This document shows positions 48,320 through 64,000 of a stretch of 64,000 bases of DNA, in pieces; positions within the stretch are counted from its first letter, which is position 1, and the number at the start of each line of letters is the position of its first letter. Source of the stretch: Clostridia bacterium (GTDB taxonomy: Bacteria > Bacillota > Clostridia > Oscillospirales > CAG-272); assembly GCA_017455905.1 (NCBI GenBank), contig JAFTLQ010000015.1, positions 964 through 64,963 on the forward strand, read 5' to 3'. The notes beneath the pieces were generated by a model. That model did no database searches, was not told where the DNA came from, and worked only from the letters and a program-made list of their open reading frames with translations. The position numbers were made by a program, and so were the translations under genes.

Positions 48320-48348
48320 TTGATAAAATTCCAAAAACATGTTATAAT
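48320..48348 (+). promoter_or_regulatory. consensus extended -10 promoter of the candidate ncRNA
   Basis: TTGATA (48320-48325), 17-nt spacer, TGtTATAAT (48340-48348). Confidence 0.7.
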
Positions 48349-48354
48349 GCGTTT

Positions 48355-48670: not shown

Positions 48671-48697
48671 CTCGGGTTGTTGCATTTTAACTCTTGC

Positions 48698-48721
48698 GAA
48701 GGGCTTTGTCAAGCCCTTTTC
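48698..48721 (+). terminator. second (tandem) terminator
   Basis: GAAGGGCTT / AAGCCCTTT stem, TGTC loop, followed by TTTT. Confidence 0.6.
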
Positions 48722-48899
48722 GCCGTTTGTTTGCTACTCGTCGGTCGAGCACGACGAGCTTAACGCAAATAGTTGCTACGATTTGGTCGCGCGCAAATTG
48801 TGACGCAAGGAGTCGCATCCGTAATAGCGGTATGCAAGGCCCCTTGAAAATAAAAATCAGCACTCAGAATTTGATATGCAGTAAACAAAGAAAACGGGT

Positions 48900-49430: not shown

Positions 49431-49483
49431 AGTCCCACCTCGGAATATTTATTTTTAAAAAGTATATTCAAAGATAGGACTTT

Positions 49484-49663
49484 CTATTCTTCGTTTGTTT
49501 CTGCCCGTTCCTCGCACAAGCTTCGCTGTGTTGCAATCGTCGCTAGTGTATCACCGAGCTGTACAAAAACGGTGGCAAGCAATGTAATTTCGTCGACGGA
49601 TAGTTTGCATGAAATCGCATTAGCGAGTGCGGTCACAGCAGAGGTCAGTTCAAGTGAGTTCAT
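49484..49663 (-). CDS. small DUF6774-like protein (59 aa)
   Basis: Not in the track (<60 aa). It encodes MNSLELTSAVTALANAISCKLSVDEITLLATVFVQLGDTLATIATQRSLCEERAETNEE, with an AAGAGGTGA SD upstream, in the same orientation as and upstream of the DUF6512-like gene. Confidence 0.6.
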   Translation of the reverse strand: MNSLELTSAVTALANAISCKLSVDEITLLATVFVQLGDTLATIATQRSLCEERAETNEE

Positions 49664-49746
49664 TGCATATCACCTCTTTATATGATATGCGAAAAACGAA
49701 GAAAAGCAAACGCATTCGAACCCACCGCCATGTTCATATATTACGG

Positions 49747-49775
49747 TTGAAAAAGGACGAAAATTATGGTATAAT
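49747..49775 (+). promoter_or_regulatory. consensus promoter at the start of the long untranslated region upstream of the recombinase operon
   Basis: TTGAAA (49747-49752), 17-nt spacer, TATAAT (49770-49775). Confidence 0.6.
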
Positions 49776-50069
49776 ATAACCCCTAAAAACAAAAAGAGCA
49801 GGCGAACCTGCTCAAAACAACTCAATATTTACCCCAAAAGTAAGCATAAGCAAAAAATATCAAGTGTCCATAACTTGAATCTGTTATGAACACTCGATAT
49901 GCCAAACTAGATATTTCTTGATACGCCATAATTTATGCACCAAAAGGGTAGTATAATTTCACGGTGCAACCACCCCCAAAAAGGTAGTTTTCGAGGTGTT
50001 ATTTTTGCATTTCGCTCATTCATAAAAAATTATCAATTCCATTCTCTACTAATACATTATAGCAGCCGA

Positions 50070-50101
50070 GTCAGGGTCAAAATAGGGCCTTGACTTTTTT
50101 T
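50070..50101 (+). terminator. intrinsic terminator/attenuator immediately upstream of the recombinase operon
   Basis: GTCAGGG / CCTTGAC stem (one G-U) followed by TTTTTTT. It ends 25 nt before the GGAGG SD of the first operon gene. Confidence 0.55.
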
Positions 50102-50138
50102 CGTTTTAGAGTGATAGATATAAGCGGAGGTGAACGAA

Positions 50139-50333
50139 ATGAAACGAAAAGATGCAGAGGCTGAAACAAGATACCGCCTGGGCAACTTCATTATGCTCAA
50201 TCTTTACAAGCAGGGCGTAATTACAAGAGAACAGTATCTTGAGATACGGGATAGGCTGATAGACGAATACAAGCCTGTCATTGGAGAATTAGAAAGGGGG
50301 CTACCGTGGATACTAGACGAGTTAGAAAAGTAA
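50139..50333 (+). CDS. small recombinase-associated protein (hypothetical)
   Basis: GGAGG SD with 8-nt spacing to ATG 50139. It overlaps the recombinase start by 28 nt. Confidence 0.6.
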   Translation: MKRKDAEAETRYRLGNFIMLNLYKQGVITREQYLEIRDRLIDEYKPVIGELERGLPWILDELEK

Positions 50334-51742
50334 CTGTTATCCCAGCAATAAAGCCGTTAGAGGCTTTGAGAAAAAAGAAAAGGGTAGCAGCTTATGCTCG
50401 TGTTTCAACGGGTTCTAGAGAGCAGGAAACGAGCTTAGTGGCACAGAGAGAATACTACGAGAAGCTGATTCGGAATAACGAGGAGTGGCTTTACGTAGAT
50501 GTTTATTACGATGATGGAATATCAGGTCTATCATTTAGGAATCGAGAGGGATTTAATCAAATGATTGCGGATGCTCTCGACGGCAGGATAGATTTGATCT
50601 TGACGAAATCACTGTCACGATTTGCTCGAAACACGGTGGATACATTGACAACTATACGCAAGCTCAAAGATGCGGGAGTAGAGGTGTTCTTCGAAAAGGA
50701 AAACATCTATACTATGGATGCCAAGGGAGAGTTCCTTATTACGCTTATGAGTAGCCTTGCCCAAGAGGAGAGCAGATCCATTTCTGAAAATATCACTTGG
50801 GGCAAAAGAAAACATTTTGCTGATGGCAAATATGAGGTGGCGTTTGCTATGTTTTGGGGCTATGAGAAAGGTGACGATGTTGTTCAAATGATTATCAACG
50901 AAGAGCAGGCCCCTATAGTTAAACTCATATATACCTTGTTTCTCGGTGGGCACTCGTCATACGGAATAGCTGCTATTTTGGATAATTTACAGATACCAAT
51001 TATGTGCGGGGACAAAGGTTGGTGTGCTTCTACAATAGAAAGCATTTTATCTAATGAGAAGTACAAGGGTGATGCGCTATTGCAGAAAAGCTATACGGTT
51101 GATTATCTAACAAAAAAGATGAAAAAGAATGAAGGGGAGGTGCCCCAGTATTATTTGGAAAAAGTTCATCCCGCTATTGTCTCCGATGATGTCTTCGCTT
51201 TGACACAGGAAATGCTTCAAGAGCGAAGAATGAGAGGAGATAAATATTATAGCGGGACCGACCCGTTTTCATCGAAAGTGATTTGTCCCAATTGCGGGGA
51301 TACATATGGAAAAAAGCCTTCTCACAAATACGTGGATAATTTGCTTTATTACTCACAGTTCTGGGTGTGCAAATCGTATTATAAGAAGAAATGCGGGTCC
51401 CCAAAGATAAGAGACGAAATAGTATGCGGCTATTTCCGCCTGGCGTTAGTACAATTATTTACTGATTATAATGATGTAATAGAGTATTGTAAAAAAACAG
51501 TGCTAGACTATTATGGCGAAGTGCCCCAGCATTATGTAGAAGATTTATTATATGACTTATCCCGGAACAATTACCGAGATTGGTGGATAGAAAGGCTCAT
51601 TCGAGTTCTCCTTGTGCGAGTAGAAGTGTCTATGCACCACAGACTGACATATTGCTTCATTGACGGGAGCAGACGGAATTTTGAATATCAACCTCGAAAC
51701 GACAGAATGTTGAAAACACCAGATGAACGTAAGAAACAATAG
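50306..51742 (+). CDS. large serine recombinase
   Basis: RVAAYARVSTGSREQETSLVAQREYY (catalytic Ser motif), DLILTKSLSRFARN, a recombinase domain, and a zinc ribbon (CPNCGDTYGKK...WVCKSYYKKKCGSP). GTG start after an AGGGGG SD. Confidence 0.9.
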   Translation: MDTRRVRKVTVIPAIKPLEALRKKKRVAAYARVSTGSREQETSLVAQREYYEKLIRNNEEWLYVDVYYDDGISGLSFRNREGFNQMIADALDGRIDLILTKSLSRFARNTVDTLTTIRKLKDAGVEVFFEKENIYTMDAKGEFLITLMSSLAQEESRSISENITWGKRKHFADGKYEVAFAMFWGYEKGDDVVQMIINEEQAPIVKLIYTLFLGGHSSYGIAAILDNLQIPIMCGDKGWCASTIESILSNEKYKGDALLQKSYTVDYLTKKMKKNEGEVPQYYLEKVHPAIVSDDVFALTQEMLQERRMRGDKYYSGTDPFSSKVICPNCGDTYGKKPSHKYVDNLLYYSQFWVCKSYYKKKCGSPKIRDEIVCGYFRLALVQLFTDYNDVIEYCKKTVLDYYGEVPQHYVEDLLYDLSRNNYRDWWIERLIRVLLVRVEVSMHHRLTYCFIDGSRRNFEYQPRNDRMLKTPDERKKQ

Positions 51743-51757
51743 AACGGAGGAATGCTT

Positions 51758-52063
51758 ATGAAATTAACAGAAAAAGATAAAAAGAGAATTGAAAATATGA
51801 GAAAAGGGGGATTTGGTTATAGGAGAATCGCTAGATTTTTAGGATTAAGCACAGACGCGGTAAAATACTATATTGAAAAAAACAATGGAAATATAAAAAT
51901 CGAAGTCACAGGAATCACATTGAAGGATATATGCCCAAATTGTTGTGCTCCAGTGGTTCAAACGCCGCACAAACGAAGAAAAATTTATTGTAGCGATAAG
52001 TGCAGATTGCAAGCATGGCATCGGTATCATTATGAATCAAAAAAGGAGAAGCCTGAAGAATGA
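51758..52063 (+). CDS. small HTH + C-terminal Cys4 zinc-ribbon DNA-binding protein (paralog A)
   Basis: LTEKDKKRIENMRKGGFGYRRIARFLGLSTDAVKYYIEKN (sigma-70 region-4/LuxR-like HTH) and CPNCCAPVVQTPHKRRKIYCSDKCRLQAWH. GGAGG SD 7 nt before ATG 51758. Confidence 0.7.
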   Translation: MKLTEKDKKRIENMRKGGFGYRRIARFLGLSTDAVKYYIEKNNGNIKIEVTGITLKDICPNCCAPVVQTPHKRRKIYCSDKCRLQAWHRYHYESKKEKPEE

Positions 52064-52371
52064 TGACACGAAAGGAAAAACAAAGAATTCAGATGTTGCG
52101 AAAGTTTGGCTTTAGTTATCCGCAAGTGGCTCGGCTGATGGATATAAATGTTAGCACAATTAAATCTTATTGCAGAAGATACGGTTTTGCCGATACGGAT
52201 CTTGAAAGTTCAGGTTTTTGCAAAATGTGTAGGACACCAATAACGCAAACTCCTCATACAAAAAAGAAAGAGTTTTGTGGCAATAACTGTAGAGTAAAAT
52301 GGTTTTATCACAAAAAGAAATTAGTAACTGAACTGGAAGCTGAATTAAATGAGAATTTCGATGATGAATAA
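52060..52371 (+). CDS. small HTH + C-terminal Cys4 zinc-ribbon DNA-binding protein (paralog B)
   Basis: Same architecture as paralog A (KEKQRIQMLRKFGFSYPQVARLMDINVSTIKSYCRR ... CKMCRTPITQTPHTKKKEFCGNNCRVKWFYH). ATGA overlap with paralog A. Confidence 0.7.
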   Translation: MMTRKEKQRIQMLRKFGFSYPQVARLMDINVSTIKSYCRRYGFADTDLESSGFCKMCRTPITQTPHTKKKEFCGNNCRVKWFYHKKKLVTELEAELNENFDDE

Positions 52372-52805: not shown

Positions 52806-53152
52806 ACCTCCTCGTTTTTCTTAAGAGCTTTGAATAGCTCTTTTCTTTTTTGTCTGCAAGCGGGGCAACGTTTCGGCTCCGAAAGTTTGCGTTCCTCATA
52901 GTATTTTTGCTCTCCGCCTGTAAAGAGGAACGTTTCGCCACAGTCGCAGCACACGATCTTTTTCTTCTTTCTCTTGTGCTTCTTTGGGGCTTCGGGTTTT
53001 ACCTCAACAACCTTGGTGGTTACGAGATAGATCTTGCTTCCTACTTCCTGTGTGACTCGGTAAATAGGTGTGTGTTCGTTCTCCTGCTGGCGGAGCGCAA
53101 AACGCTCCTCGATGATTTCCATGTTGTCCTCAAAATACTTTGCAAAACTCAT
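52802..53152 (-). CDS. zinc-ribbon (zf-trcl-like) domain protein
   Basis: CCDCGETFLFTGGEQKYYEERKLSEPKRCPACRQKRK matches the CxxCG..F.F...EQ.FY....PKRC..CR pattern of the probable zinc-ribbon family. A lysine-rich linker precedes it. Confidence 0.7.
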   Translation of the reverse strand: MSFAKYFEDNMEIIEERFALRQQENEHTPIYRVTQEVGSKIYLVTTKVVEVKPEAPKKHKRKKKKIVCCDCGETFLFTGGEQKYYEERKLSEPKRCPACRQKRKELFKALKKNEEV

Positions 53153-53229
53153 TTTTTCTGTCTCCTTTTTTTGTTTTTATAGCGTTGTAGAGTGGGGGGC
53201 GTGTAGATAGCTGTGACGGTTGGTGTGCG

Positions 53230-53640
53230 GGGGTACATATAAATAGCAGAGGTGTGTACCCCCTTATATATAGTAACGGCGTACAACCTCCTAAATATAT
53301 AGGGACGGTGTGTAACTGCTTATATAGACCTAGGGGACAACCGTCTGCTAATATATGTACTCGCTGTTCGGTGTTGCGAAATAATGTACTCACTGTTGCG
53401 TCCTCCTTTTTTATATGTAACCACTGTTGCATTTTCGCTTATATATGTACTCACTGTCAACCTCCTTATATAGGGAACAGCGGTCAACCCCTTTATATAG
53501 CGTTGGGTGTTAGACTCTTTTGTTATAGTACCGTAGCCGACAACCCCCAGTTATATAGCCGTTGCCCCGCGCCGTTATAATAGCAAAAGACGCAACCCCC
53601 TCTGCTGTAGTAGCAAAAGGTGTGACCCCTATATATAGGG
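53230..53640. repeat. array of ~15 degenerate direct repeats, period ~25-31 bp (mean ~28), each with a C-rich block followed by a TTATATAG-like core
   Basis: TATATA-type cores lie near 53240, 53267, 53296, 53322, 53352, 53383, 53413, 53443, 53468, 53495, 53525, 53553, 53578, 53607 and 53632. Example units: gtcaacctccTTATATAGggaac, gtcaaccccTTTATATAGcgttg, gacaacccccagTTATATAGccg, gtgtacccccTTATATATAGtaac. A sub-family TATATGTACTCACTGTTGC lies at 53349-53460. Confidence 0.85.
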
Positions 53641-53650
53641 TAAAATCATT

Positions 53651-53692
53651 AACCCCCTTTTGCGGCACTAACATAAGAGTGAAAAGGGGGTT
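53651..53692. repeat. perfect 11-bp inverted repeat capping the repeat array
   Basis: AACCCCCTTTT (53651-53661) and AAAAGGGGGTT (53682-53692), separated by 20 nt. Confidence 0.85.
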
Positions 53693-53852
53693 ACAGACTA
53701 TTCAGTTGATATGCGCCTCTAAAAGTCGGTAAAAACCGACAACTTTTTGCAAGGTGATGCGAAAATACGACAACTCGGCATTTACAAATAGCGGGATGTG
53801 TGATATAATAAAAGCACAGAATGCAGAAATATTTAGTTTGGAGGCAAATTAC

Positions 53853-54383
53853 ATGGTAAAAGCGCCTATCACAAAAGAATATAAAACGCTAGAGGAAATC
53901 AAAAGAATGATCGAGCTTGAAGATGATTTCCATGATGCCGAATTGATGGATATCGCCATCAAGAACGGTGATGCTTGGTTTGGGATTTGGCAATATGGTC
54001 ATCGTTTCACGTTTGCTTGCCGAGAAATTATGAACCTTGAAATGAATATGGACCTAAAACTGGTAAGTCTGTATGAAGTAGATATAAAGCAATGTGAAGA
54101 TGGTGTAGAACTAACCTTTGACGAGGTGGGAGTTGTTATTAAAGCGAAAGAAGTCATATTAGAGGAGCTAATTCTTCCCAAGGATTATGAGCTATCGGAT
54201 GAGGAGAAAACGGCAATTAAGACGAAAATAGAAGCTCCCGATGTATATGTCAAATGCCCTCGATGTGGCGGGGAATTGCACTACAACAAGAAGTTCGATT
54301 TAATCGATGTTCGTTGCTATTCGGATGGCTGTATAAAATCGTCGTATTTGTTATGCGATGAAGAAGTGGAGGACGTAAAATGA
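53853..54383 (+). CDS. hypothetical protein with C-terminal zinc ribbon
   Basis: GGAGG SD and ATG 53853 (the track start at 53754 lacks an SD). CPRCGGELHYNKKFDLIDVRCYSDGC near the C-terminus. Confidence 0.65.
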   Translation: MVKAPITKEYKTLEEIKRMIELEDDFHDAELMDIAIKNGDAWFGIWQYGHRFTFACREIMNLEMNMDLKLVSLYEVDIKQCEDGVELTFDEVGVVIKAKEVILEELILPKDYELSDEEKTAIKTKIEAPDVYVKCPRCGGELHYNKKFDLIDVRCYSDGCIKSSYLLCDEEVEDVK

Positions 54384-54697
54384 AGAAAAAGGGATATAGC
54401 CGTGAAGGTTTGTTTGGAAATATCAATCATTATGATGAAAGAGGCAGGAAAGTGGGACAGAGTCGCCCTGGTTTCTTCGGAGGTTACAACCACTACGATG
54501 AAAATGGAAAAAAGGTAGGGCGTAGCTCTCCTGGCTTGTTTGGTGGCTACAATCACTATGATGAACATGGTAATAGGAGTGGTAGAACCAGTCCCGGATT
54601 ATTTGGAAATCTAAATCATTATGATGAACACGGCAGAAGAACGGGAACCAGTACCCACGGCTTGTTTGGCGGCTTTAACCATAAGGGTAAGAAATAA
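54380..54697 (+). CDS. Gly/His-rich tandem-repeat protein (five ~20-aa GLFGG.NHYDE.G...G.S repeats)
   Basis: GLFGNINHYDERGRKVGQSRP / GFFGGYNHYDENGKKVGRSSP / GLFGGYNHYDEHGNRSGRTSP / GLFGNLNHYDEHGRRTGTSTH / GLFGGFNHKGKK. ATGA overlap with the upstream gene. Confidence 0.65.
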   Translation: MKKKGYSREGLFGNINHYDERGRKVGQSRPGFFGGYNHYDENGKKVGRSSPGLFGGYNHYDEHGNRSGRTSPGLFGNLNHYDEHGRRTGTSTHGLFGGFNHKGKK

Positions 54698-54711
54698 AGT
54701 GAGGGAAAGAA

Positions 54712-55707
54712 ATGAAATCGAATGAAAAATACAACCGAATTCGCCCTTTGAAGATTTGGGAGATCTTGCAGAGAGAAACAGATGAAGACCATCCTATGGG
54801 AACCGAGGAACTCCGTGCGAAACTGTTGGAGTGTGGAATTGAAGCACATAGGACCACCATTTATGAGGACATTAAGCTCCTCAATGAATGTGGTTATGAG
54901 ATTATGTCCCGTAGAGGTCGAAGCAACCAGTATTACGTGATGGACAGAAGTTTCTCTAATCCGGAGATTCATATTCTTTTAGATGCAGTTCAGGCTGCAA
55001 GCTTTATTACAGACAAAAAGACAGCCGAGCTTGTTGACAAAATCGCTCAGTTGGCAGGTAGCCAAAAGGGGCTTGTCTTGAAAAAGAACATCGTCCAGTT
55101 TAACACCGCAAAAAGCTCCAACGAAAGTATTTATTATAACGTTAATGAAATAGTATCTGCCATTAACAGCAGACGAAAGATCATCTTCCTTTACTTCGAT
55201 TACGATAACAATCACAATCGTGTGTACCGTAAGGATGGACATCACTATGTTGTAAGTCCTTATGCCACCGTTTTTGATGATGGACATTACTATCTTGTGA
55301 TTTACGACAAGCGTTACAACAAGATGACAAACTACCGCATCGACCGTATGGACAAAGTGGAGATCATCGAAGAGCTTGCAGACATGCCGCCCGAGGAGAT
55401 GCAGTTTGATATTGCCAATTACAAGAAATCTCTTTTCGGAATGTTTTCGGGAGAGACCACAGCGGTAACGATTGAAGCACACCGCACCTTAGTGGATGCT
55501 ATCTTCGATCTCTTTGGTGAGAGAACAAGAATTATCTCCAACGGAGAAGAGACCGTGCGTTTTACCGTCGATGTTCAGGTGAGTGCGTTGTTCTTTGGCT
55601 GGTGTTGCTCGTTTGGAGAGAAGGTCAAACTGCTCGGTCCCGCTAACATCATTGAGCAATTGAAAGAGTACAACGAAACAATTAAGAATCAATACGAGGA
55701 GAACTGA
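54712..55707 (+). CDS. WYL domain-containing transcriptional regulator (N-terminal HTH)
   Basis: HTH (IWEILQRETDEDHPMGTEELRAKLLECGIEAHRTTIYEDIKLL) plus a WYL-type core (IIFLYFDYD...YVVSPYATVFDDGHYYLVIYDKRYNKMTNYRIDRMDKVEII). Confidence 0.8.
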   Translation: MKSNEKYNRIRPLKIWEILQRETDEDHPMGTEELRAKLLECGIEAHRTTIYEDIKLLNECGYEIMSRRGRSNQYYVMDRSFSNPEIHILLDAVQAASFITDKKTAELVDKIAQLAGSQKGLVLKKNIVQFNTAKSSNESIYYNVNEIVSAINSRRKIIFLYFDYDNNHNRVYRKDGHHYVVSPYATVFDDGHYYLVIYDKRYNKMTNYRIDRMDKVEIIEELADMPPEEMQFDIANYKKSLFGMFSGETTAVTIEAHRTLVDAIFDLFGERTRIISNGEETVRFTVDVQVSALFFGWCCSFGEKVKLLGPANIIEQLKEYNETIKNQYEEN

Positions 55708-56126
55708 TGGATAAGAAGATAAGATTCCGCAGAGGCTTATATTGTTTCTTCCTTGGCATCGATATTTTCTTTGGCGTACTGACACTGATTTTTCTATTCG
55801 TGTTTCCTCCGATTGGATTGATTGGCGTGGCGGTTACAGTGCTATATGCGTTGGTTGCAATATCTATTAAGCAATCTCTTGGCGGAAAGAAGCCGATATT
55901 CGATTTGTTTCGAGAAGGCACGAAAACCTGTGGGAAATGTAAACATACATTTGCAAAGAAAGAGCATTTGACCTGTCCTCACTGTGCGCGGGTAAGAGAA
56001 TTTAAACGCAAATATGCGGAAATTATAAAAAGCAAAACACCGCCACCGAAGGATGAGGAGCACGATGATTTCTGGGAAGAACTTGGTACATTAATGTTGA
56101 TTGATTCGCTATTTGATGATCTATAA
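55707..56126 (+). CDS. membrane protein (2 TM helices) with cytoplasmic Cys4 zinc ribbon
   Basis: YCFFLGIDIFFGVLTLIFLFVF / IGLIGVAVTVLYALVAI helices, then CGKCKHTFAKKEHLTCPHC. TGATG overlap with the WYL gene. Confidence 0.65.
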   Translation: MDKKIRFRRGLYCFFLGIDIFFGVLTLIFLFVFPPIGLIGVAVTVLYALVAISIKQSLGGKKPIFDLFREGTKTCGKCKHTFAKKEHLTCPHCARVREFKRKYAEIIKSKTPPPKDEEHDDFWEELGTLMLIDSLFDDL

Positions 56127-56149
56127 AAATACGATGGAAGGAGGCACCT

Positions 56150-57283
56150 ATGGAAAACGCATTGTGGAATGGAAAATTATATACCGCTGCGGAAATAGCG
56201 GATTCGTATGAATTGGAAAAGAGTATAAGGAAGGCAAGCGGAAGGAAAGAGCTGAGATGCCCGGATGCAGATTGCCCCAGTCCTGTTTTGAGATATTGTC
56301 ATGGTGAAATCAAGAGTGCCTTCTTTGCTCACCTCGATAATTGTACATGCGATTACGCTGAGTTCGATAAAGAGAACACGCAGTTGATGCGAAAGGTGAA
56401 ACGCACCATATACGAGAGCTTTGTTGCACAGGGATATGATGTGCAGTTGGAAGTGAAGCTGTTACCTAGGCACTATACGCATCTGCTGTTTACTATGTCC
56501 ACGGGCAAGAAAATAGCTGTAGAGCTGGGAACACAGAGAACGACCGCCAATAGGATAGATTACCTTTCGGAGCAATATGAGAGAATCGGTGTTGATGTAA
56601 AATGGATCGTAATTAGCAACTCGCAAACACCGGTTAAAGAGAACGAAACATTCTTTATTAAACGGTATCTCTTGAACGAGAGCAAACGAAAAGATATTCT
56701 AGTCTTAAATTGGGATGGGACCGAGATTACACAGTACATAGTAGACCCCAATAAATATCTTTATAGGGGAAACAGCATATATTCTGAAAATTACCCTGAA
56801 ATATACTCAGAAACGGCGGGGCTAGAATTGTTAGCTTTTGAAGAAGATGAGTTGACTATTCGGGGCTTCCATTCGAGATATAACGAATGGTTGATACGCA
56901 AGCGTGCTGCATTTGACAAGAAATTGACTCAAATGGCGGAGGAAGCAGCGTTGCGTGAAAAGCGTATGCGTGAACGTCAAGAAGAGTATGAAAGACAAGA
57001 GCGTGAACGTGCCGCTAGGGCAAGGACGTTGCCTCCCATCATAGCAAGCCGCCCCAGCACATCCTATTCAAGGCCTTCCACTCCGAGTATGTCTTATGAG
57101 GCAAGGAGAGAAAGCATTCTTCATCGAATGGACCAACAAACAGAACAGGTGCGAGATTCAACGGGCGCACGTTGGATTAGATGCGAACTTTGTGGCAGCG
57201 TGGAGACTGAAGATAAGTTTTGGTCCTATGGCGGTGCAAACCACGTAAACCTCGGAACTTGTTATAAGTGTGGCAAGAAATAA
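56150..57283 (+). CDS. CoiA-like (competence protein CoiA family nuclease-like) protein with coiled-coil and C-terminal zinc ribbon
   Basis: The N-terminus (ALWNGKLYTAAEI...LRCPDADCPSPVLRYCHGEIKSAFFAHL) follows the CoiA pattern (A..G..i.A...CP.C...v....G....HFAH). There is an EEAALREKRMRERQEEYERQERERAARA coiled coil, and the protein ends with CELCGS...CYKCGKK. Confidence 0.5.
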   Translation: MENALWNGKLYTAAEIADSYELEKSIRKASGRKELRCPDADCPSPVLRYCHGEIKSAFFAHLDNCTCDYAEFDKENTQLMRKVKRTIYESFVAQGYDVQLEVKLLPRHYTHLLFTMSTGKKIAVELGTQRTTANRIDYLSEQYERIGVDVKWIVISNSQTPVKENETFFIKRYLLNESKRKDILVLNWDGTEITQYIVDPNKYLYRGNSIYSENYPEIYSETAGLELLAFEEDELTIRGFHSRYNEWLIRKRAAFDKKLTQMAEEAALREKRMRERQEEYERQERERAARARTLPPIIASRPSTSYSRPSTPSMSYEARRESILHRMDQQTEQVRDSTGARWIRCELCGSVETEDKFWSYGGANHVNLGTCYKCGKK

Positions 57284-57301
57284 AGGCGAGAGGTAAGTGC
57301 T

Positions 57302-57607
57302 ATGAAAAAATGGATATCATATAAAGCTGGCTCTTCAATCGGTGGCTTAGGCTCCGAAAACGGAACGATTCTTTACGATGAGGAGTTTGATGGTGGATGT
57401 CGTATAACAATGGAGAAGTGTCCCAGGTATTATGCAATTACCTGTGGTGTGTATGGCTCAATGGTCCATACGGTATTCCGTGGTGCTGATGATGCCAAGG
57501 ATACGTATGATGCTATGAAGCTGGAGCTTGGAAAGTTTATGACTTCCGCAACAAACGAAAACGAAGAAGCTGAATTTTACGAATATTTTTGCGATAAATA
57601 TGTTTGA
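57302..57607 (+). CDS. hypothetical protein
   Basis: 101-aa ORF with tight operon spacing. No motif recognised. Confidence 0.55.
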   Translation: MKKWISYKAGSSIGGLGSENGTILYDEEFDGGCRITMEKCPRYYAITCGVYGSMVHTVFRGADDAKDTYDAMKLELGKFMTSATNENEEAEFYEYFCDKYV

Positions 57608-57620
57608 AAAGGAGTAGATT

Positions 57621-59237
57621 ATGTACATCATTGCGGACGTCGAGTGGGTTCAGAACAAAGAGAATAAACAAAGTCCCACGCAGCTGTCCGCTGTTCGTGT
57701 GGACAACAACTGGAATATAGTAGATGAGTTTTCGTCTTATATACGACCAATGGACGCTTCATTCCACGATTGGAAGCACGTCGCATATGCAGGCGGAAAG
57801 CCTGATGACTTCCTGTATGCACGAAACTGTCATAATGTTTTTACTGCCTTTAACAACTGGGTTGGAGAGGACACTATCTGTTGGTGGTATATCCCATCCC
57901 GTGATTTACACGCATTTATAAATAAAATCGTACTGAAGATTAAAAACACCAAACCATCAAAGATACTCAGTGAATATATGCTTGGCTTCTTGGACGGGCA
58001 GGGATATGTGAAGGGCAGTGCTTACAAATTGGCAAGGGCACGAAATATTGACGTTCCCGAACTGGAGCACGACTCAAGAAACGATGTTATAGCCATTGTG
58101 AATTTGCTAAAAGGAGTAGGCTTTCCTCAAGAGGCGTTGCTTGAACCTCCGATAAAGCCAGAGCCAAAGTTTAATCACCCCAAGAGCGATATGTTAGAAT
58201 ATCAATATGATGTTACTCACGCATTGCTTCATAAAAAAGGGTGTCCGCACATTCCCGAAGGAGCGGATATGCTCGGCTTTAGCACGCTCTTGGGTGCAGT
58301 AAGAAAGGGCTATAAGGCTTGTGCTTGCGTAAGAGAAGAACTTCGCCTTGCTAAGCGTGAAAAGGTACTTGATGAAATAAGCAGGTCGCAATACACATTT
58401 ATGTATGCGGAACACGGTTCAATCTTCCATCGACACGATTGTGGCTTACTTCATAATGCTCATCATGTACTCGGAACTATAAAATACGATACGATCATTA
58501 AAAAAGGATTGCGCCCGTGCAAGGTATGTAATCCTTCTCCCGAAGATGAGTATAGACCGCTTTTAATCCAGCAAAGAATCGCAACAATGAAGACTCCCAA
58601 GCTGGCAAAGCGTAGCCTTACACGCTCCGAAATGACGGCGATGACTAGACTACAACAATCGCAAAAGGAGCGTTATTCGGGTGTTTTACATACTGATATG
58701 ACCAAACAGGAAAAGGACGATTTGTTCACGCTTACACAACCGGGTTTTGGATTTTTTGCTGCGAGAGGCTACCAAAACTTCCATACACGCAATTGCAGCA
58801 GATTGGTAGGTAAGAGCAATATTCGAGGCTTTGATACTTTCTCTCACGCTTGTCGTGCCGGATACACTCCTTGCAAATATTGCAAGCCTAATGAAAAACA
58901 AAATATCGTTGTGTCGATTCCGATAGATAACAAGGTGAGGACCGATGAAACAATTGAGGATTTGTCGGTATTGTGCGAACAATATGGTTATCCGCATCGC
59001 TATCGCAAAGGTAATTTTGAGTTGGAGACAGCGGTAGGCAAGTGGATTATCCATACGGGGGATAGACCAGTTACTGTAGAACACATAAATCTTGCAAAAA
59101 AGCCTAATTGCGAGACTTACCATAAACAGCATCGCATTTTCCTATCAATGCTCGATGCGTTACGGTACATACATAGGCACGATAGCGAATTGAAAGGAGA
59201 CAGCGAAGAGAATGCAGGAACAGATGAAGTTGTTTAG
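57621..59237 (+). CDS. DEDD (DnaQ-like) 3'-5' exonuclease domain protein with three Ada-like zinc-binding modules
   Basis: YIIADVEW (Exo I DxE) and EHDSRNDVIAIVNLL (Exo III HxxxxD), followed by three repeats of the H..xC...(~25 aa)...G(Y/L).xC..C.P pattern: LHKKGCPHI..RKGYKACACV, FHRHDCGLL..KKGLRPCKVCNP and FHTRNCSRL..RAGYTPCKYCKP. Confidence 0.5.
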   Translation: MYIIADVEWVQNKENKQSPTQLSAVRVDNNWNIVDEFSSYIRPMDASFHDWKHVAYAGGKPDDFLYARNCHNVFTAFNNWVGEDTICWWYIPSRDLHAFINKIVLKIKNTKPSKILSEYMLGFLDGQGYVKGSAYKLARARNIDVPELEHDSRNDVIAIVNLLKGVGFPQEALLEPPIKPEPKFNHPKSDMLEYQYDVTHALLHKKGCPHIPEGADMLGFSTLLGAVRKGYKACACVREELRLAKREKVLDEISRSQYTFMYAEHGSIFHRHDCGLLHNAHHVLGTIKYDTIIKKGLRPCKVCNPSPEDEYRPLLIQQRIATMKTPKLAKRSLTRSEMTAMTRLQQSQKERYSGVLHTDMTKQEKDDLFTLTQPGFGFFAARGYQNFHTRNCSRLVGKSNIRGFDTFSHACRAGYTPCKYCKPNEKQNIVVSIPIDNKVRTDETIEDLSVLCEQYGYPHRYRKGNFELETAVGKWIIHTGDRPVTVEHINLAKKPNCETYHKQHRIFLSMLDALRYIHRHDSELKGDSEENAGTDEVV

Positions 59238-60522
59238 TGGAACAGCAGTAAAAATGCAATTGATATCCAACGGTCTTTGTTACGGTCCATGTCCTATGGT
59301 CAATGATGAAGTTGAACAGCGGATTACCATTACCCCTACGCATATATGGGTAAGCAGATATCAGTATGGCGACGGCTTGAACTACGAATTGCTCCAAAAA
59401 TTCAATGGCCGCATTGCACGTGAAAACGGTGAAGCAATCCTTGCTGAAGTCGCAGCTTATTTCAGTGATGAGAATCATATAGTGCCTTTTGCTACCGATG
59501 TTGGTAGTTGGGAATTGGTCCTGACCAATGAAGAAGGGGAGAAATACCGCTTCTTCGGTTCCTTGATTTCGCTAGATGCCGCATTAGATAACATTTGTGA
59601 TGTCATTAGAGAACGTTTGGATATGCCTTTTCTGTACCTGTTTAATGGTGATGACAAGCAAGACAGAATTGATAGGATCACAATCGAATATAGTCGGGTA
59701 ACCAAAATTAAGCCCAATCCTACGCATAATGTTGATTATGAATATGTTACTTGGAATTATTCTGAGAAGGTCACACTTGATAGAGAGACCGAGACATTGG
59801 AGTATTTCAGGCGAATTGGCACAGAGTGCGATACGACCTGGAAATATCATGTGGATGGCGGGATTTCAACCTTTTTGGATGAAACGGAAGTTGAGCTGTT
59901 CGATGACATCGAGGGTAATCCTCCCGAAGCCATTGATGACCCAATGGAGACAAAGAACTACCGTATTACAATCGAGTTTGCTCATATGCCAGATAAGGTC
60001 ATTACTGGTAGTTATGATCGTTTGAGTCTCCCAAGAAAATGGGCTAAATTCGCAAGAGACTTAAAAAAGTTTATGCAGTTTTACGGTGAGGGGGAAATCC
60101 TTGATCGTAGGTACTACGAAGCAATAAAGCAATGTCCTGGTGATATTATTTATCTTTCGGTTACCTTTGGTGAGCACGGAAAAAGGTACTATTATCACAC
60201 CGATAACAATGAAATCAAAGTTGGTGACTGGGTTGTAGTTCCTGTTGGAAACGATGGCAAAGAGCGCATAGTAAAGGTTGAAAAGAAGGAATATTTCCGC
60301 GAGGATAATGTCCCAATGCCTTTATCGCGGGTAAAGAGTGTAATCGAAGTCTTTATTCCGCCCGAAGATGATGAGGAAGCACTTGATTGTCCAGTGCTAA
60401 AAAAGATGATAACTATGGATGAATGTTTGGATCATTGTGAGCGCGGCTTTGATGTTGCAAGCGATGAGGAATCTGAACAATGCGACCTTATTTGCGAAAA
60501 ATGTCGATATTTCGAAGATTGA
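59212..60522 (+). CDS. hypothetical protein (436 aa) with Cys-rich C-terminus
   Basis: AAAGGAGA SD upstream of ATG 59212. Overlaps the preceding gene by 26 nt. C-terminal CPVLKK..CLDHCERG...CDLICEKC. Confidence 0.6.
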   Translation: MQEQMKLFSGTAVKMQLISNGLCYGPCPMVNDEVEQRITITPTHIWVSRYQYGDGLNYELLQKFNGRIARENGEAILAEVAAYFSDENHIVPFATDVGSWELVLTNEEGEKYRFFGSLISLDAALDNICDVIRERLDMPFLYLFNGDDKQDRIDRITIEYSRVTKIKPNPTHNVDYEYVTWNYSEKVTLDRETETLEYFRRIGTECDTTWKYHVDGGISTFLDETEVELFDDIEGNPPEAIDDPMETKNYRITIEFAHMPDKVITGSYDRLSLPRKWAKFARDLKKFMQFYGEGEILDRRYYEAIKQCPGDIIYLSVTFGEHGKRYYYHTDNNEIKVGDWVVVPVGNDGKERIVKVEKKEYFREDNVPMPLSRVKSVIEVFIPPEDDEEALDCPVLKKMITMDECLDHCERGFDVASDEESEQCDLICEKCRYFED

Positions 60523-60537
60523 GAAGGGTATAAAGCG

Positions 60538-60927
60538 ATGAAAAAAGAAACATTGAAACAAATGCTTGATATGAGCAAGGATGAAAAGACCGCAGCGGAA
60601 GTCATTGAGATGATAAAAAACTACGAGGATCAGTATGAAGATGGCACTGATGGAACCACCATCAAGCTACGCGTTTTCAAAGGTCCCGATGGAAAGGTAG
60701 TAACAGAAATATGTTCACTTTTGGAGTATCGTGACATTTCCAAAATGAACTTGGAAGAGCTACGTGCTTATTACGAGGAGTTGGAAGATCAATTTGACGA
60801 AGTGTCGGGTGATGAGCCTGAAGATGAGGATTCCGATGAATATGATGAGTGGGAAGATCTGTTTTCGGAGCTTGAGGATGAGATGGAAGCCGTAAAGGAT
60901 AGAATTGATGAATTGGAAAAGAGGTAA
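60538..60927 (+). CDS. highly acidic small protein
   Basis: The C-terminal half is dominated by D/E (EELEDQFDEVSGDEPEDEDSDEYDEWEDLFSELEDEMEAVKDRIDELE). Confidence 0.6.
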   Translation: MKKETLKQMLDMSKDEKTAAEVIEMIKNYEDQYEDGTDGTTIKLRVFKGPDGKVVTEICSLLEYRDISKMNLEELRAYYEELEDQFDEVSGDEPEDEDSDEYDEWEDLFSELEDEMEAVKDRIDELEKR

Positions 60928-60933
60928 CACATA

Positions 60934-61746
60934 ATGACAATTGAAACCTTAAAAGAAAAAGTAAAAGAAATAGTAGAAAAAATCGATATTGAAACATATC
61001 CCGAAATTCACGATTATCTTACCGCAATTTTGGAAGATAGTATTTATGAGGATACAGCATATGAGGTATCCGCCGTTGTTTATAACTGCGATAAGAAAGA
61101 AGTTCTCCCCCAGGAAATAGCAGATCTTTTGATAGAGATTTATGAGGATGAACTCAAAGCAAAGAATCACGATGCGATTTGTGACTATGGCTCTCTCTAT
61201 TACACAGGACGCATCGGTGAGCAGAACTATGAGAAAGCCGTTTATTATTATGATATGGCGGCAAAGCTCGGAAACCGTCAAGCACAAGAAAACCTTGGCT
61301 ATTGCTACTACTATGGTCGCACGGGAGTCGTGGATTATGAGAAGGCGTTCCATTATTTTGTAAAGGGTGCTCTTGACAATCACCTTATTTCTCTTTATAA
61401 AATCGGTGATATGTACAAGAATGGCTATTACGTGGAAAAGGATGAAAACGAAGCATATTGCATTTATCACCATTGCTTAATAGGCTTGAATGAGATAAAC
61501 ACACCTATTCTTGGCGCTGACGTTCATATTCGTATAGCTGATTGCCATTTCAACGGCATCGGTGTAAAGAAAAATGCAGCCATTGCACTTGAACACTATC
61601 AAATTGCAGAACGTCTTTATTGGATTCGCTTGCAAGAGGGTGATTTCTTGATTAAGAAGCAATATGAGCGTTCCATTGAAATGCAAGCAAAAGCGCGAGA
61701 GGAAATGAAGAAAGATCTTCCCGGATTCGCATGGGTGAATAGCTAA
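60934..61746 (+). CDS. Sel1-like (TPR-family) repeat protein
   Basis: Repeats of the form YEKAVYYYDMAAKLGNRQAQENLGYCYYYG and YEKAFHYFVKGALDNHLISLYKIGDMYKNG. Confidence 0.7.
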   Translation: MTIETLKEKVKEIVEKIDIETYPEIHDYLTAILEDSIYEDTAYEVSAVVYNCDKKEVLPQEIADLLIEIYEDELKAKNHDAICDYGSLYYTGRIGEQNYEKAVYYYDMAAKLGNRQAQENLGYCYYYGRTGVVDYEKAFHYFVKGALDNHLISLYKIGDMYKNGYYVEKDENEAYCIYHHCLIGLNEINTPILGADVHIRIADCHFNGIGVKKNAAIALEHYQIAERLYWIRLQEGDFLIKKQYERSIEMQAKAREEMKKDLPGFAWVNS

Positions 61747-61759
61747 CCGAGGTGGAAAT

Positions 61760-62140
61760 ATGATTATAGAAAGAAAATACGTACCTTTTTGTACGCTGAT
61801 AAATCGTGACCAGGAAGCAGGGGCAATATTTGAGAAGGCATTTAATGAATCGTATCCCCCGGAGGACAGAGAGCGCATATGGGCTATGCTGATGCCTCAG
61901 TGTCTCTTTGAAAGGGATATGGGTTGGTGTTTTAGCAAGCTCGGGGATGTAATAGAGGGCTTTGAAAAACTCGACCAGGACAAGCCCTATGATAACGGAT
62001 TATCGTATAAGGATGTTAATGAGACTAGAATTGTTTCCCGTGGGGAAGATGGTCTTGTTTTACATCTAATTTGTCGCTTTGATGGAATTTACAATATTGT
62101 AAAAATAGTCGAATTTGATGATGAAAGTGAAAAGCAGTGA
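61760..62140 (+). CDS. hypothetical protein
   Basis: 126-aa ORF in operon context. Confidence 0.55.
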   Translation: MIIERKYVPFCTLINRDQEAGAIFEKAFNESYPPEDRERIWAMLMPQCLFERDMGWCFSKLGDVIEGFEKLDQDKPYDNGLSYKDVNETRIVSRGEDGLVLHLICRFDGIYNIVKIVEFDDESEKQ

Positions 62141-62504
62141 CATAGTTGTTATGGCTGAAGAGCCGATTTCTGAAAGGACTCCAGAAGAAATTAGAGATTA
62201 TTTCGCTAACAAAAAAACCGAGCAGGACCTAGCAGATGCCTTTGCAATCACTAGCAATGAATTCTTTTGGGTTGCCGACAACATATACGATTATGAGGAA
62301 GGCACTCCCGAGCATAAAACAGCCTGCGAGATTACCGATGGGTGGGGTGCTCTTATGGATGAATATGAAGAAAGAATATTTGAGATTTTGACCAGTGAGG
62401 GCGTAACTATTCCGGCAAGTGCTCAAATTAGAGTGCTAATACCATTCATGTCTAGGAATGGGTATAGAGACGCTAATGGCTGGTGGATAAAAGACGGTCA
62501 GTAA
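62115..62504 (+). CDS. hypothetical protein
   Basis: 129-aa ORF overlapping the previous gene. The start is uncertain (ATG 62115-62123 cluster or ATG 62151). Confidence 0.55.
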   Translation: MMMKVKSSDIVVMAEEPISERTPEEIRDYFANKKTEQDLADAFAITSNEFFWVADNIYDYEEGTPEHKTACEITDGWGALMDEYEERIFEILTSEGVTIPASAQIRVLIPFMSRNGYRDANGWWIKDGQ

Positions 62505-62571
62505 ACAAAGGAGGTAGCGTGTATGCTAAGGTGCTCTGACAAGTCATGTAGTTTTAGTTGAGGAACCCAAA

Positions 62572-62793
62572 ATGCCTAATTTGAATGATTATCACGCATA
62601 TAAAAGTACAAGTGGTGGCGGTAGCAGTTCTGGTAAAGGCACAGGCTTTGGCTGTGGTGGATGGACTGTAATCGTCATAGTTGCGGCTTTGCTAATATTT
62701 TTTGTCGCTGATGGTGCAAGCTGGGATGCCATAGATACACTTTTAGGCCTAGGACTTATTGCGTTTTTGATAGCGAAAACATTGTTTAGATAA
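62572..62793 (+). CDS. small Gly-rich membrane protein
   Basis: STSGGGSSSGKGTGFGCGG followed by two hydrophobic helices. GAGGAA SD. Confidence 0.55.
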   Translation: MPNLNDYHAYKSTSGGGSSSGKGTGFGCGGWTVIVIVAALLIFFVADGASWDAIDTLLGLGLIAFLIAKTLFR

Positions 62794-62897: not shown

Positions 62898-62926
62898 TTG
62901 ACAGAACCGCTTATTTATGATATAAT
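62898..62926 (+). promoter_or_regulatory. consensus sigma-70 promoter of the XRE gene
   Basis: TTGACA (62898-62903), 17-nt spacer, TATAAT (62921-62926). Confidence 0.7.
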
Positions 62927-62983: not shown

Positions 62984-63184
62984 ATGGTTAGCTATAAAAA
63001 ACTCTGGAAGTTGTTAATCGACAGAGATCTCAAAAAGAAAGATTTGGCAAGAATAGCTGATTTAAGTACCTATACCATTCAAAAATTAAATCGCAACGAG
63101 AATGTCAATACAGACACTCTCACCAAGATATGCAAAGCGTTGAATTGTACTTTCGATGATATTTTGGACATTGTTGAAGATTAA
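62984..63184 (+). CDS. XRE family helix-turn-helix transcriptional regulator
   Basis: LWKLLIDRDLKKKDLARIADLSTYTIQKLNRNENVNTDTLTKICKALNCTFDDIL is a typical Cro/C1-type HTH. GGAGGA SD before ATG 62984. Confidence 0.8.
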   Translation: MVSYKKLWKLLIDRDLKKKDLARIADLSTYTIQKLNRNENVNTDTLTKICKALNCTFDDILDIVED

Positions 63185-63208: not shown

Positions 63209-64000
63209 ATGAGTGATAATGTAAATAGAAAACAAGAATTCCGAAAGTGGCTTGATGAAAATGGCGTCAGAAATCCTGCACCGGCATTGATTTTGCAATC
63301 TATGGATGAAGCCTCGGAGTACGCATATAAGCGAAAAATGATAAGCAATAGCTTCTGGGAAATTGAAAATTCTAGTGATTTTAACGCAGTTAGAGCTAAA
63401 TTGTTGGGAATGCGGCTTTTCAGATTGATTCATCGAAATGCAGCTTCGATTCTTGATAAATCCTGGAAATACTATGTTTCGTTTTTGGATGATGAAGTGC
63501 AACGAAATAGTAGGATAAGTGACGCTCCGCAGAACGAGTTGACATCCAGTTCATCTTCATCGGATGAATCTGTAGATATGACAAGTGCCACAGAGATTAG
63601 ATATGATTCGGTGGATGAGCATCATATTCTTCATGCAGATAGTGAAATTTCGGATGATTTAGGTGAAACAGAGCAAACGACCGAATTTATGATTCGTAAA
63701 AGTGTGGATAAGTCATTATTGCGAGCAGGAATGACGATTCCTAAAGCATACGCAGAAAAGCTGATGGAGCTTCTTGGTGTTGATTTGCAAAAAGGAGAGA
63801 AGTGCTCTATTGAAGTTTTACTTGAAGATGTTGTCTATGAAGCTTATTTGGTAAGCGTTAACTTCTCGGAAAAGTATGAAGATGTCTTTATGCTTCAAAT
63901 CCGGTATTCGGCGTCCAGTCCATTGTGTAATAGGTTAAACGATATTTTTGTTGATATTGGACATGATGCGACAGAGAAAGCAAATGAAGATTACATAGAA
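63209..64000 (+). CDS. hypothetical protein, 3' end outside the window
   Basis: Not in the track because no stop lies within the window. AAAGGGGGA SD and ATG 63209. I read 264 codons with no stop (MSDNVNRKQEFRKWLDENG...SSSSSSDES...IEVLLEDVVYEAYLVSVNFSEKYEDVFMLQIRY...). Confidence 0.6.
   Translation, partial: MSDNVNRKQEFRKWLDENGVRNPAPALILQSMDEASEYAYKRKMISNSFWEIENSSDFNAVRAKLLGMRLFRLIHRNAASILDKSWKYYVSFLDDEVQRNSRISDAPQNELTSSSSSSDESVDMTSATEIRYDSVDEHHILHADSEISDDLGETEQTTEFMIRKSVDKSLLRAGMTIPKAYAEKLMELLGVDLQKGEKCSIEVLLEDVVYEAYLVSVNFSEKYEDVFMLQIRYSASSPLCNRLNDIFVDIGHDATEKANEDYIE

Follow-up and report, generated by a model that had tools for sequence, protein, structure and literature searches.

A WYL regulator gene and its conserved promoter accompany a mosaic operon of candidate conflict genes on a Clostridia mobile element

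Does a string of thirteen tightly packed and largely uncharacterised bacterial genes encode one multi-component machine, or does it gather separate genes behind a shared promoter? The question is raised by a cluster at positions 53853–62793 of a 64,000-nucleotide stretch of contig JAFTLQ010000015.1 from a Clostridia bacterium (the window), where thirteen open reading frames (ORFs; o1–o13) lie on the + strand with a coding fraction of 0.981 and include the gene of a WYL-domain transcription regulator, o3. The original prediction proposed that these genes form one undescribed defence or anti-defence module on a serine-recombinase element. Comparison with related loci leads us to favour, with a probability of roughly 55%, another answer: that the cluster is one transcription unit, a WYL-gated slot in which an integrative mobile element of a gut Clostridia-type bacterium keeps variable conflict-gene cargo, and that it is assembled from exchangeable cassettes and is not a single machine.

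The packing of the cluster is as originally described, and was borne out when its junctions were re-read. ORFs o1 and o2 share the nucleotides ATGA at 54380–54383, and o3 and o4 share TGATG at 55705–55709, with the o4 start codon overlapping the o3 stop. The overlap between o7 and o8, at 59212, is 26 nt, and that between o11 and o12 is 23–26 nt, the range covering the two possible o12 starts, ATG 62118 and TTG 62115. The remaining intergenic gaps measure 6–23 nt, with the exception of 67 nt before o13. A 16.4 kb portion of the window is base for base a public gut metagenome contig, the gene calls of which match the window ORFs. The start of o1 at ATG 53853 (176 amino acids), as earlier assumed, fits both the promoter and these public gene calls; a longer ORF from GTG 53754 would overlap the promoter. 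An integron-like array is not indicated since the intergenic gaps leave no space for attC-like sites; the one repeat search covered 53100–53900, upstream of the ORFs, and none was aimed at direct repeats at the cassette borders.

Tight packing with overlapping genes need not reflect one machine, and here it does not coincide with shared inheritance. Our comparison drew on 42 genome loci (41 beyond the window), 80 loci from metagenomes and roughly twelve related arrays; the truly independent array variants number about ten, and the counts below use 11 variants with the window included. The WYL orthologues heading these arrays are 55–87% identical to o3 and are accompanied by mostly different cargo. 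The closest sister (L139/L140) has the same array without o10, with o8 94% and o9 99% identical. In L047 (WYL 87%) the regulator gene is accompanied by a different RNase_T gene, o5 (81%), o6 (74%), five other genes and o13 (66%), then by genes for a peptide deformylase, a metallo-β-lactamase (MBL)-fold protein and an ADP-ribosylglycohydrolase with a Macro protein. In L054 (WYL 86%) o7 (64%), two other genes, o11 (89%) and o12 (80%) precede peptide deformylase, ADP-ribosylglycohydrolase and HIRAN genes and a second WYL pair. The array of L162 (WYL 82%) consists of two small genes, a second WYL pair and an AAA protein beside polysaccharide synthesis genes, and that of L164 (WYL 77%) of an RNase_T gene and two small genes flanked by housekeeping genes. 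L142, on a prophage-like element with Gp157, AAA_24 and helicase genes, has RNase_T, WYL (76%), o4, three other genes, o8 (77%), o9 (76%) and two other genes, then MmeI/Eco57I-type genes. In L141 a serine recombinase is followed by RNase_T, WYL (75%), o4, a SWIM protein and an LlaJI system, and in L051 (WYL 73%) o4, o7 and o9 (62–76%) are followed by an XRE gene, a methylase and a type IIG enzyme. The most divergent regulators are found in L166 (WYL 64%), with an RE_NgoFVII/PLD nuclease, Macro, peptide deformylase and GNAT genes, and in L168 (WYL 55%), a chromosomal locus that encodes a 195-amino acid protein together with a large protein of the Endonuclease_1 type. L166 shares its backbone with the window at 50% (SHOCT), 55% (recombinase), 38–45% (helix-turn-helix, HTH) and 64% (WYL) identity, and its cargo is unrelated.

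What persists across these loci are small blocks, namely WYL–o4 (coupled in 4/11 array variants), o5–o6, o8–o9 and o11–o12, and more loosely o4, o7 and o9 with or without o8. Homologues outside the arrays are scattered. Among the 41 genome loci found with o5, another cluster ORF lies within 10 kb in one only (a WYL gene), and at the 80 metagenome loci found with o7 the other cluster genes are almost never present; neither these loci nor the WYL arrays show joint co-occurrence. Across the compared loci, therefore, the thirteen genes have neither the conserved co-occurrence nor the conserved order of a single multi-gene defence system. The original prediction had named such scattering beforehand as the observation that would speak against it, and this is largely what was found. 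Compact genes whose start and stop codons overlap, behind one conserved and putatively regulated promoter, are what one would look for if all thirteen were a new multi-component defence or anti-defence system. However, their co-occurrence never exceeds pairs or triplets in any comparison, o10 is missing from the 94–99% identical sister, o5 is interrupted by a nonsense codon in a copy that is 99.9% identical, and no counterparts of o1 and o2 were found elsewhere, which together make this explanation very improbable. The proposal of a WYL-controlled, defence-island set of uncharacterised conflict genes is nevertheless supported; it is the notion of a single thirteen-gene module that falls.

If the cargo changes, what stays the same? 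The upstream DNA of nine arrays (the window and eight others), whose WYL proteins are 64–87% identical, aligns over two 19-nt imperfect palindromes of the type GTNGCNAAAAACCGACAAC followed by a promoter. In the window the first operator-like imperfect palindrome (GTCGGTAAAAACCGACAAC) lies at 53725..53744 on the + strand, and its position and sequence are conserved upstream of the eight other WYL arrays; the second (GATGCGAAAATACGACAAC; 53756..53775, + strand) begins 31 nt after the first, start to start, and abuts the −35 element. The promoter itself (53781..53809, + strand) is sigma-70-like at 11/12 positions, with a −35 of TTTACA, a 17-nt spacer and an extended −10 of TGTGATATAAT, and it ends 44 nt before the o1 ATG. 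TTTACAA at the −35 and TGNGGTATAAT at the extended −10 are kept in all nine arrays. This arrangement is retained whatever gene comes first, be it o1 in the window, RNase_T in L141 and L142, DUF4926 in L166 or the WYL gene itself elsewhere. Between 52.3 and 64 kb on the + strand, the cluster is bracketed by the two best sigma-70-like sites, that at 53781–53809 being the second best and the other lying at 62898–62926, and the thirteen genes are probably read from the one WYL-regulator-controlled promoter. Within the 64-kb window the operator motif occurs at this site only, with none at the promoter of the neighbouring XRE gene and bacteriophage exclusion (BREX) genes. A conserved promoter beside paired palindromes is the signature to be expected, by analogy, of an auto-regulated operon with its regulator binding beside the −35 element, as BrxR has been shown to do.

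The regulator o3 (54712..55707, + strand) is, by sequence, an HTH-WYL-WCX protein and the single invariant gene of the array family. Its HTH_11 (1.5e-5) and WYL (2.3e-11) domains exceed the Pfam cut-offs and its WCX domain (1.8e-3) falls below (19 against 23.9 bits); the PADLOC WYL model matches at 3.9e-26, and o3 has 1837 relatives at E≤1e-20. These assignments, together with the recombinase, uphold the earlier description of a WYL-centred operon on a serine-recombinase element. Among solved structures, sequence searches reach only DriD constructs and further WYL-domain chains, at E values of about 1e-5. The WYL and WCX region of o3 aligns to DriD, a regulator that binds single-stranded DNA (ssDNA), with a conserved Y-R-x-D-R-M opposite W-R-L-D-R-M in DriD. 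The domain order HTH-WYL-WCX is shared by o3, DriD, CapW and BrxR, and palindromic sites next to its own promoter, as described for BrxR, are predicted for o3. Unlike DriD, neither CapW nor BrxR is detectable from o3 by sequence search at E≤0.001, and the o3 array differs from all three in having two candidate operators 31 nt apart. CapW and BrxR are repressors that ssDNA, bound to the WYL domain, frees from their operators, and in Vibrio restricted phage infection is the natural cue for such release (PMC13622015). A strict BrxR role for o3 was considered and rejected because its gene lies 7 kb upstream of the XRE gene and the BREX genes have their own 12/12 promoter without the operator motif. 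As a separate observation, a recurrent pair of WYL proteins of about 420 and about 303 amino acids, which may represent a PafBC-like two-protein regulator, ends or follows several sister arrays (L051 18873–21036, L054 18501–20668 and L162 11946–14122) and is not present in the window.

The closeness of o3 to DriD brings in an explanation that dispenses with conflict altogether, namely that the cluster is a DriD- or PafBC-like regulon for DNA damage or stress, in which the WYL protein would sense damage-derived ssDNA and induce nucleases for repair and processing, mobile elements having simply acquired the operon. The solved relatives of o3 fit this idea, as do the WYL operons set amid housekeeping genes with an RNase_T (L164) or endonuclease gene (L168) and the presence of some DEDD exonuclease beside the WYL gene in 7/11 variants (the window, L047, L051, L054, L141, L142 and L164). 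Yet the extreme turnover of cargo, the location on recombinase-bearing, prophage-like and conjugative elements and the constant adjacency to restriction–modification or BREX genes are all atypical of repair regulons, and we consider a regulon of this kind unlikely.

Our favoured model of a WYL-gated cargo slot would operate as follows. The fixed part would be the promoter with its two palindromic operators and the o3 gene. By analogy with CapW, BrxR and DriD, o3 would bind the operators beside the −35 element and repress its own operon until ssDNA lifts the repression and the whole o1–o13 string is expressed; such ssDNA could be generated when foreign DNA is attacked, when DNA is damaged or while DNA enters the cell. 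Behind this switch would stand at least seven independently exchangeable cassettes (o1–o2, o5–o6, o7, o8–o9, o10, o11–o12 and o13), two of which would encode DNA-directed enzymes (o5 and o7), the remaining products being small and mostly acidic or membrane proteins. The cargo would thus serve in the conflicts that mobile elements, phages and hosts wage with one another, and its nucleases are predicted to act on incoming DNA.

The first of the two enzymes, o5 (377 amino acids; 56150..57283, + strand), has a zinc finger at either terminus as well as a coiled coil, and had been called CoiA-like. The window protein itself stays below the Pfam threshold, matching CoiA_nuc at E 0.013 (16.1 bits against a cut-off of 20.3) and CoiA_N at E 0.09, but its family carries the assignment: CoiA_N is matched in 15/17 members and CoiA_nuc in 12/17 (best 1.9e-7), in the correct order. 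Across the 17 sequences D73 and K103 are invariant and E101 nearly so, giving the D...E-x-K motif expected of catalytic residues. An AlphaFold model (predicted local distance difference test, pLDDT, 83.5) returns Foldseek matches that are weak and nearly all to PD-(D/E)xK nucleases, and a PDB sequence search with the o5 profile gave nothing meaningful. Family matches, motif and model together point to o5 as a divergent CoiA-like PD-(D/E)xK nuclease. It departs from CoiA in an extra 50-residue helix, a C-terminal zinc ribbon and the lack of linkage to competence genes. A role as a competence-neighbourhood gene was considered and set aside, its neighbourhoods being variable and the contexts annotated in detail being those of mobile elements or defence islands. 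The 41 other one-per-species genome loci (Clostridia metagenome-assembled genomes, Desulfosporosinus, Thermincola and others) encode relatives at 23–70% identity and have no conserved neighbour family; one relative (59%) has an N6_N4 methylase/ResIII pair on one side and McrBC on the other. In IMG/VR only N-terminal zinc-finger fragments and zero full-length relatives were found. The small acidic o6 (101 amino acids; 57302..57607, + strand) travels with o5, as in L047. In locus L002, a copy of the region 99.9% identical over 15.4 kb, the o5 gene (8530–9663, equivalent to window 56150–57283) has codon 127 changed from GGA to TGA at the invariant glycine G127; the change may mean that cells can do without the nuclease or pay a cost for it, or it may be a variant of the assembly or the population.

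The contexts of o5 and of related arrays incline us towards defence as the role of the nuclease cargo. The relatives of o5 are solitary island genes, one of them between restriction–modification genes and McrBC, and in L166 and L168 the WYL gene has a restriction-type nuclease immediately behind it. A CoiA-domain protein has moreover been validated as an anti-phage gene in E. coli (Vassallo et al. 2022, PMC9519451), which further supports this leaning.

The second enzyme, o7 (538 amino acids; 57621..59237, + strand), combines a DnaQ/DEDDh-fold domain (residues 1–175) with three zinc modules and a strongly conserved C-terminal domain (about 430–521). It matches RNase_T (1.9e-5) and, in its third zinc module, Ada_Zn_binding (6.4e-8) in Pfam, and the CRISPR-associated DEDDh model in PADLOC (5.6e-5). 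Its AlphaFold model (pLDDT 86) reaches target-normalised TM-scores of 0.74–0.76 to DnaQ domains and 0.76 to 8h2f, with Cap18 (7t2s) also among the Foldseek matches. A DnaQ fold thus holds for the exonuclease proposed earlier, but the full exonuclease motif does not: D6, E8, H150 and D155 are invariant, and the Exo II region lacks a conserved aspartate, so that o7 does not possess the four acidic residues of a DEDDh 3′–5′ exonuclease. In this it differs from Cas2-DEDDh and Cap18 of the cyclic-oligonucleotide-based anti-phage signalling system (CBASS), with which it shares the DnaQ fold and the invariant Exo I and Exo III residues, and to which it adds the fused zinc modules and the conserved C-terminal domain; the canonical exonucleases of the sister arrays retain the Exo II aspartate. 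Similarly, the three Ada-like zinc modules are present as described, one of them recognised by Pfam, but all are of the form H-x3-C...C-x(1-2)-C (His-Cys3) and not Cys4, and they were rejected as Ada methyl-acceptor sites since a histidine stands in place of the acceptor cysteine. In Foldseek searches of the model against PDB and BFVD the exonuclease domain alone was recognised, PDB sequence searches with o7 and o8 gave nothing meaningful, and no description of the o7 architecture was found in Pfam, PDB or the literature, nor anything in the literature on DUF6233. The C-terminus (a predicted strand-strand-helix at 484–532 with H488, N490 and H501) is a candidate His-Me finger.

The relatives of o7 at the 80 metagenome loci are 30–48% identical, and most of these loci belong to one widespread human-gut element without other window genes. 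This element (L059–L131; for example L080 6831–13857) carries in order a resolvase, a serine recombinase, an XRE gene, a 216-amino acid protein and the o7 relative (about 39%), followed by a metallophosphoesterase, a 213-amino acid protein and a second metallophosphoesterase, with ImmA/XRE and Y-family polymerase genes nearby. In L056 an o7 relative (34%) lies just upstream of an Ssp-like phosphorothioation system. A link between o7 and phosphorothioate genes is not a general rule, being seen in only two lineages (the window and L056) among all o7 loci. The zinc domain of Ada itself recognises methyl-phosphotriesters. It is conceivable, if quite improbable, that o7, alone or together with o4, o8 and o9, represents a new type of DNA-backbone-reading nuclease whose His-Cys3 modules would sense modified or unmodified phosphates, and that it would be the missing restriction partner, or an antagonist, of systems that make phosphorothioate DNA, type 4 BREX and Ssp among them.

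A broader alternative is that a smaller but real system sits within the mosaic, with o4, o7, o9 and often o8 forming a discrete WYL-controlled nuclease module and the other genes travelling as passengers. The o7 architecture is stable at about 540 amino acids with many invariant residues, and the candidate members do recur together: o4, o7 and o9 in L051, o4, o8 and o9 in L142, and o4 (in two copies), o8, o9 and o7 in L057/L105 at 39–45% identity beside HsdR-like and DUF262 genes. Yet the same members also occur apart, with WYL–o7 lacking o4, o8 and o9 in L054 and o4, o8 and o9 lacking o7 in L142; about 75 of the 80 metagenome o7 loci have none of o4, o8 or o9, and gene order varies between loci. 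We regard a discrete module as rather unlikely, and the exchangeable-cassette reading as the better account of these recurrences.

The remaining cargo consists of small or uncharacterised proteins, all encoded on the + strand. The acidic o1 (53853..54383) ends in a CxxC...CxxC zinc-ribbon-like motif and has no homologue in any of the related arrays compared. The basic o2 (105 amino acids; 54380..54697), rich in Gly/His/Tyr-Asp repeats, is built from about 4.5 copies of a 22-amino acid unit, G-L-F-G-G-Y-N-H-Y-D-E-x-G-x-x-x-G-R-S-x-P, with sub-threshold similarity to YD/RHS repeats; it is specific to the window array, with no counterpart in the others compared. A gene for an RHS/YD-shell toxin is found upstream of the sister array in L054. 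A membrane anchor, a zinc ribbon and an acidic tail make up o4 (139 amino acids; 55707..56126), the gene of which directly follows the WYL gene in L051, L141 and L142 and is present twice in L057. The 436-amino acid o8 (59212..60522), mostly found beside o9, has no recognisable domain in Pfam or by PDB sequence search and belongs to a large uncharacterised family, for which 1185 cluster representatives are found at E≤1e-3 and 243 at the stricter cut-off of E≤1e-30, with zero relatives in the IMG/VR scan. Its neighbour o9 (129 amino acids; 60538..60927), with a coiled-coil tail, is as acidic as first reported (isoelectric point, pI, 4.09; D+E = 44/129 residues), and o10 (270 amino acids; 60934..61746) is likewise the Sel1 protein that had been proposed, with three repeats at E 3.3e-24 in Pfam. 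The paired and acidic o11 (126 amino acids; 61760..62140) and o12 (128 amino acids; 62118..62504) are followed by o13 (73 amino acids; 62572..62793), which has a Gly-rich N-terminus and a membrane helix; o4 and o13 each contain one long hydrophobic stretch.

Profile searches (Pfam, PADLOC, PHROGs and NCBIfam) thus recover the WYL, RNase_T/Ada and Sel1 domains but no named system, in agreement with the earlier failure to recognise one. There is no PADLOC match to o1, o2, o4–o6 or o8–o13 and no system-specific PADLOC match in the cluster, PHROGs and NCBIfam returned nothing specific for its ORFs, and Pfam found no domains in ten sister-array cassettes or in longer o8 relatives. Structure searches with the AlphaFold models of o5 and o7 fared similarly, giving a DnaQ fold for o7 and, for o5, only the weak nuclease matches described above.

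The character of these small products raises another possibility, that the array serves counter-defence or establishment, with cassettes that would inhibit host immunity or process the DNA of the element itself, fired transiently on entry into a cell that does not yet contain the WYL repressor (zygotic induction), until o3 builds up and shuts them off. Most products are small and acidic (o1, o6, o8, o9, o11 and o12; pI 4.1–4.7), and DNA-mimic anti-restriction proteins are likewise small and acidic. Gene turnover is very rapid, PADLOC matches are lacking, and sister arrays contribute Macro, ADP-ribosylglycohydrolase, MBL-fold, peptide deformylase and GNAT genes. A conjugative element contributes the relaxase, primase and coupling-protein genes that immediately precede the L051 array, and a predicted auto-repressed operon that encloses its repressor gene would suit zygotic induction. 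Against this, most relatives of o5 stand alone on chromosomes or in islands and show the IMG/VR distribution noted above, some WYL arrays begin with restriction-type nucleases (RE_NgoFVII/PLD and Endonuclease_1), and no anti-defence family was recognised, PHROGs matches being to families of unknown function only and the libraries searched including no anti-defence set. A counter-defence array is therefore a tentative alternative, which we rate as doubtful while taking its evidence seriously.

Where, then, does this operon reside? The G+C content of the window drops from about 54–57% to about 40–44% near 45–46 kb, and a SHOCT_2 gene and a large serine recombinase, identified by domain search at 50130..51742 on the + strand, form the backbone of the element. 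Between recombinase and cluster lie two small HTH/zinc-ribbon genes and two genes on the minus strand, of which one encodes a treble-clef zinc domain. The cluster is followed by a separate transcription unit with a 12/12 sigma-70 consensus promoter (62898..62926, + strand) that lacks the WYL operator motif. This unit is headed by an XRE-type HTH_26 regulator gene found by domain search (62984..63184, + strand) and continues with the start of a 1020-amino acid gene without domains (63209..64000, + strand), beyond which, outside the window on the same contig, PADLOC matches BrxP (1.3e-248), BrxC (3.6e-77) and PglZ (1.8e-22, in the N-terminus of the protein). By these three matches the downstream genes are probably type 4 BREX (brxPCZL), in a sequence that ends before BrxL. 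They are a neighbour of the cluster only, with their own promoter and regulator and an extra 1020-amino acid gene before BrxP. Type 4 BREX, which is enriched in gut bacteria, makes phosphorothioate DNA there (PMC12914056). The recombinase backbone and the downstream BREX genes place the cluster in a defence island on a mobile element, in keeping with the defence context originally proposed. Sister arrays are likewise trailed by restriction systems, of type IIG restriction–modification in L051, MmeI/Eco57I type in L142 and LlaJI in L141.

Several further observations concern this neighbouring DNA. The BREX module spans 10001–20201 on L137, and its XRE protein is on record in 90 blocks of a public collection, which indicates that the XRE-headed BREX module is common. 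Between L139 (7298–9592) and L137 (13290–15626) BrxP is only 71% identical, yet BrxC is 99%, the 1020-amino acid protein 97% and the modules otherwise 97–99% identical, which suggests that the PAPS-reductase/DUF4007 component (BrxP) was swapped between them. The two HTH/zinc-ribbon genes directly after the recombinase (51752–52371) are paralogues of 103 amino acids; since their counterpart in L166 (7155–7589) lies inside a longer recombinase ORF of 660 amino acids, they may be detached C-terminal recombinase modules. The low-G+C DNA begins about 5 kb ahead of the recombinase, and at 45000–50100 holds a methyltransferase-like ORF, an EamA-like membrane ORF, DUF6512, DUF6774 and a truncated AAA_21/AAA_15 ATPase (47357–47833); this segment may be what is left of another element, or else the present element may truly begin with it on the left. 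Upstream of the WYL operators, in the divergent stretch that separates them from the treble-clef gene, about 10–12 copies of a TATATA-centred box (for example CCCCCTTATATATAG) are spaced at 27–30 nt over 53230–53645, the palindrome CCCTATATATAGGG at 53627–53640 belonging to the same array. The arrangement resembles iterons, a centromere or an operator array, and was ruled out as a conserved part of the switch, being absent from the other WYL arrays. A tRNA scan of the window for a possible integration target found none, and a near-identity DNA search of 50–64 kb against plasmids and phages gave zero matches.

The closest precedent is hotspot 5 of the SXT/R391 integrative conjugative elements, in which every region has a WYL gene beside variable defence systems (bioRxiv 10.1101/2020.12.16.423150). 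There as here, a conserved WYL gene identifies a fixed slot in an integrative element, related elements differ in their cargo (the window against L166), as is the mark of a cargo slot, and BREX lies in the same island as the window array. The differences are a Firmicute host and a serine-recombinase backbone in the window element, a cargo that is a long string of small uncharacterised genes without a recognisable system, and a WYL gene that is third within its operon while BREX has its own XRE regulator and promoter. Window-type arrays are found in addition on a prophage-like element, on a conjugative element and on chromosomes.

Several considerations weigh against a WYL-gated slot for conflict genes. 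Generic WYL and DEDDh models aside, PADLOC finds no known defence protein among the thirteen or among the tested sister cassettes. The separation of the WYL gene from BREX by 7 kb, and the separate BREX promoter without operator, count against a strict BrxR role for o3. WYL orthologue operons that lie between housekeeping genes with an exonuclease and two small genes (L164) or with Endonuclease_1 (L168) also fit a DNA-damage regulon, and the Macro, ADP-ribosylglycohydrolase, MBL-fold and peptide deformylase genes of sister arrays look more like counter-defence or detoxification. Operator binding by o3, its ligand and the phenotype of the cargo are predictions from sequence and analogy, and the independent array variants, at about ten, are few.

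For the biology of these bacteria, the mosaic operon is a useful caution for genome scans that equate tight overlap with one machine. It singles out widespread families without an assigned function, namely the o7 architecture, the o8 family, the WYL-coupled o4 and the solitary CoiA-like o5, and it adjoins a type 4 BREX phosphorothioation system. The WYL gene with its dual-operator promoter would be a portable regulatory unit that marks fast-changing cargo slots in gut Firmicutes, and a search for this unit, an approach that has proved productive with SXT hotspot 5 and the P2/P4 hotspots, should turn up many uncharacterised genes of the conflicts between bacteria, phages and plasmids.

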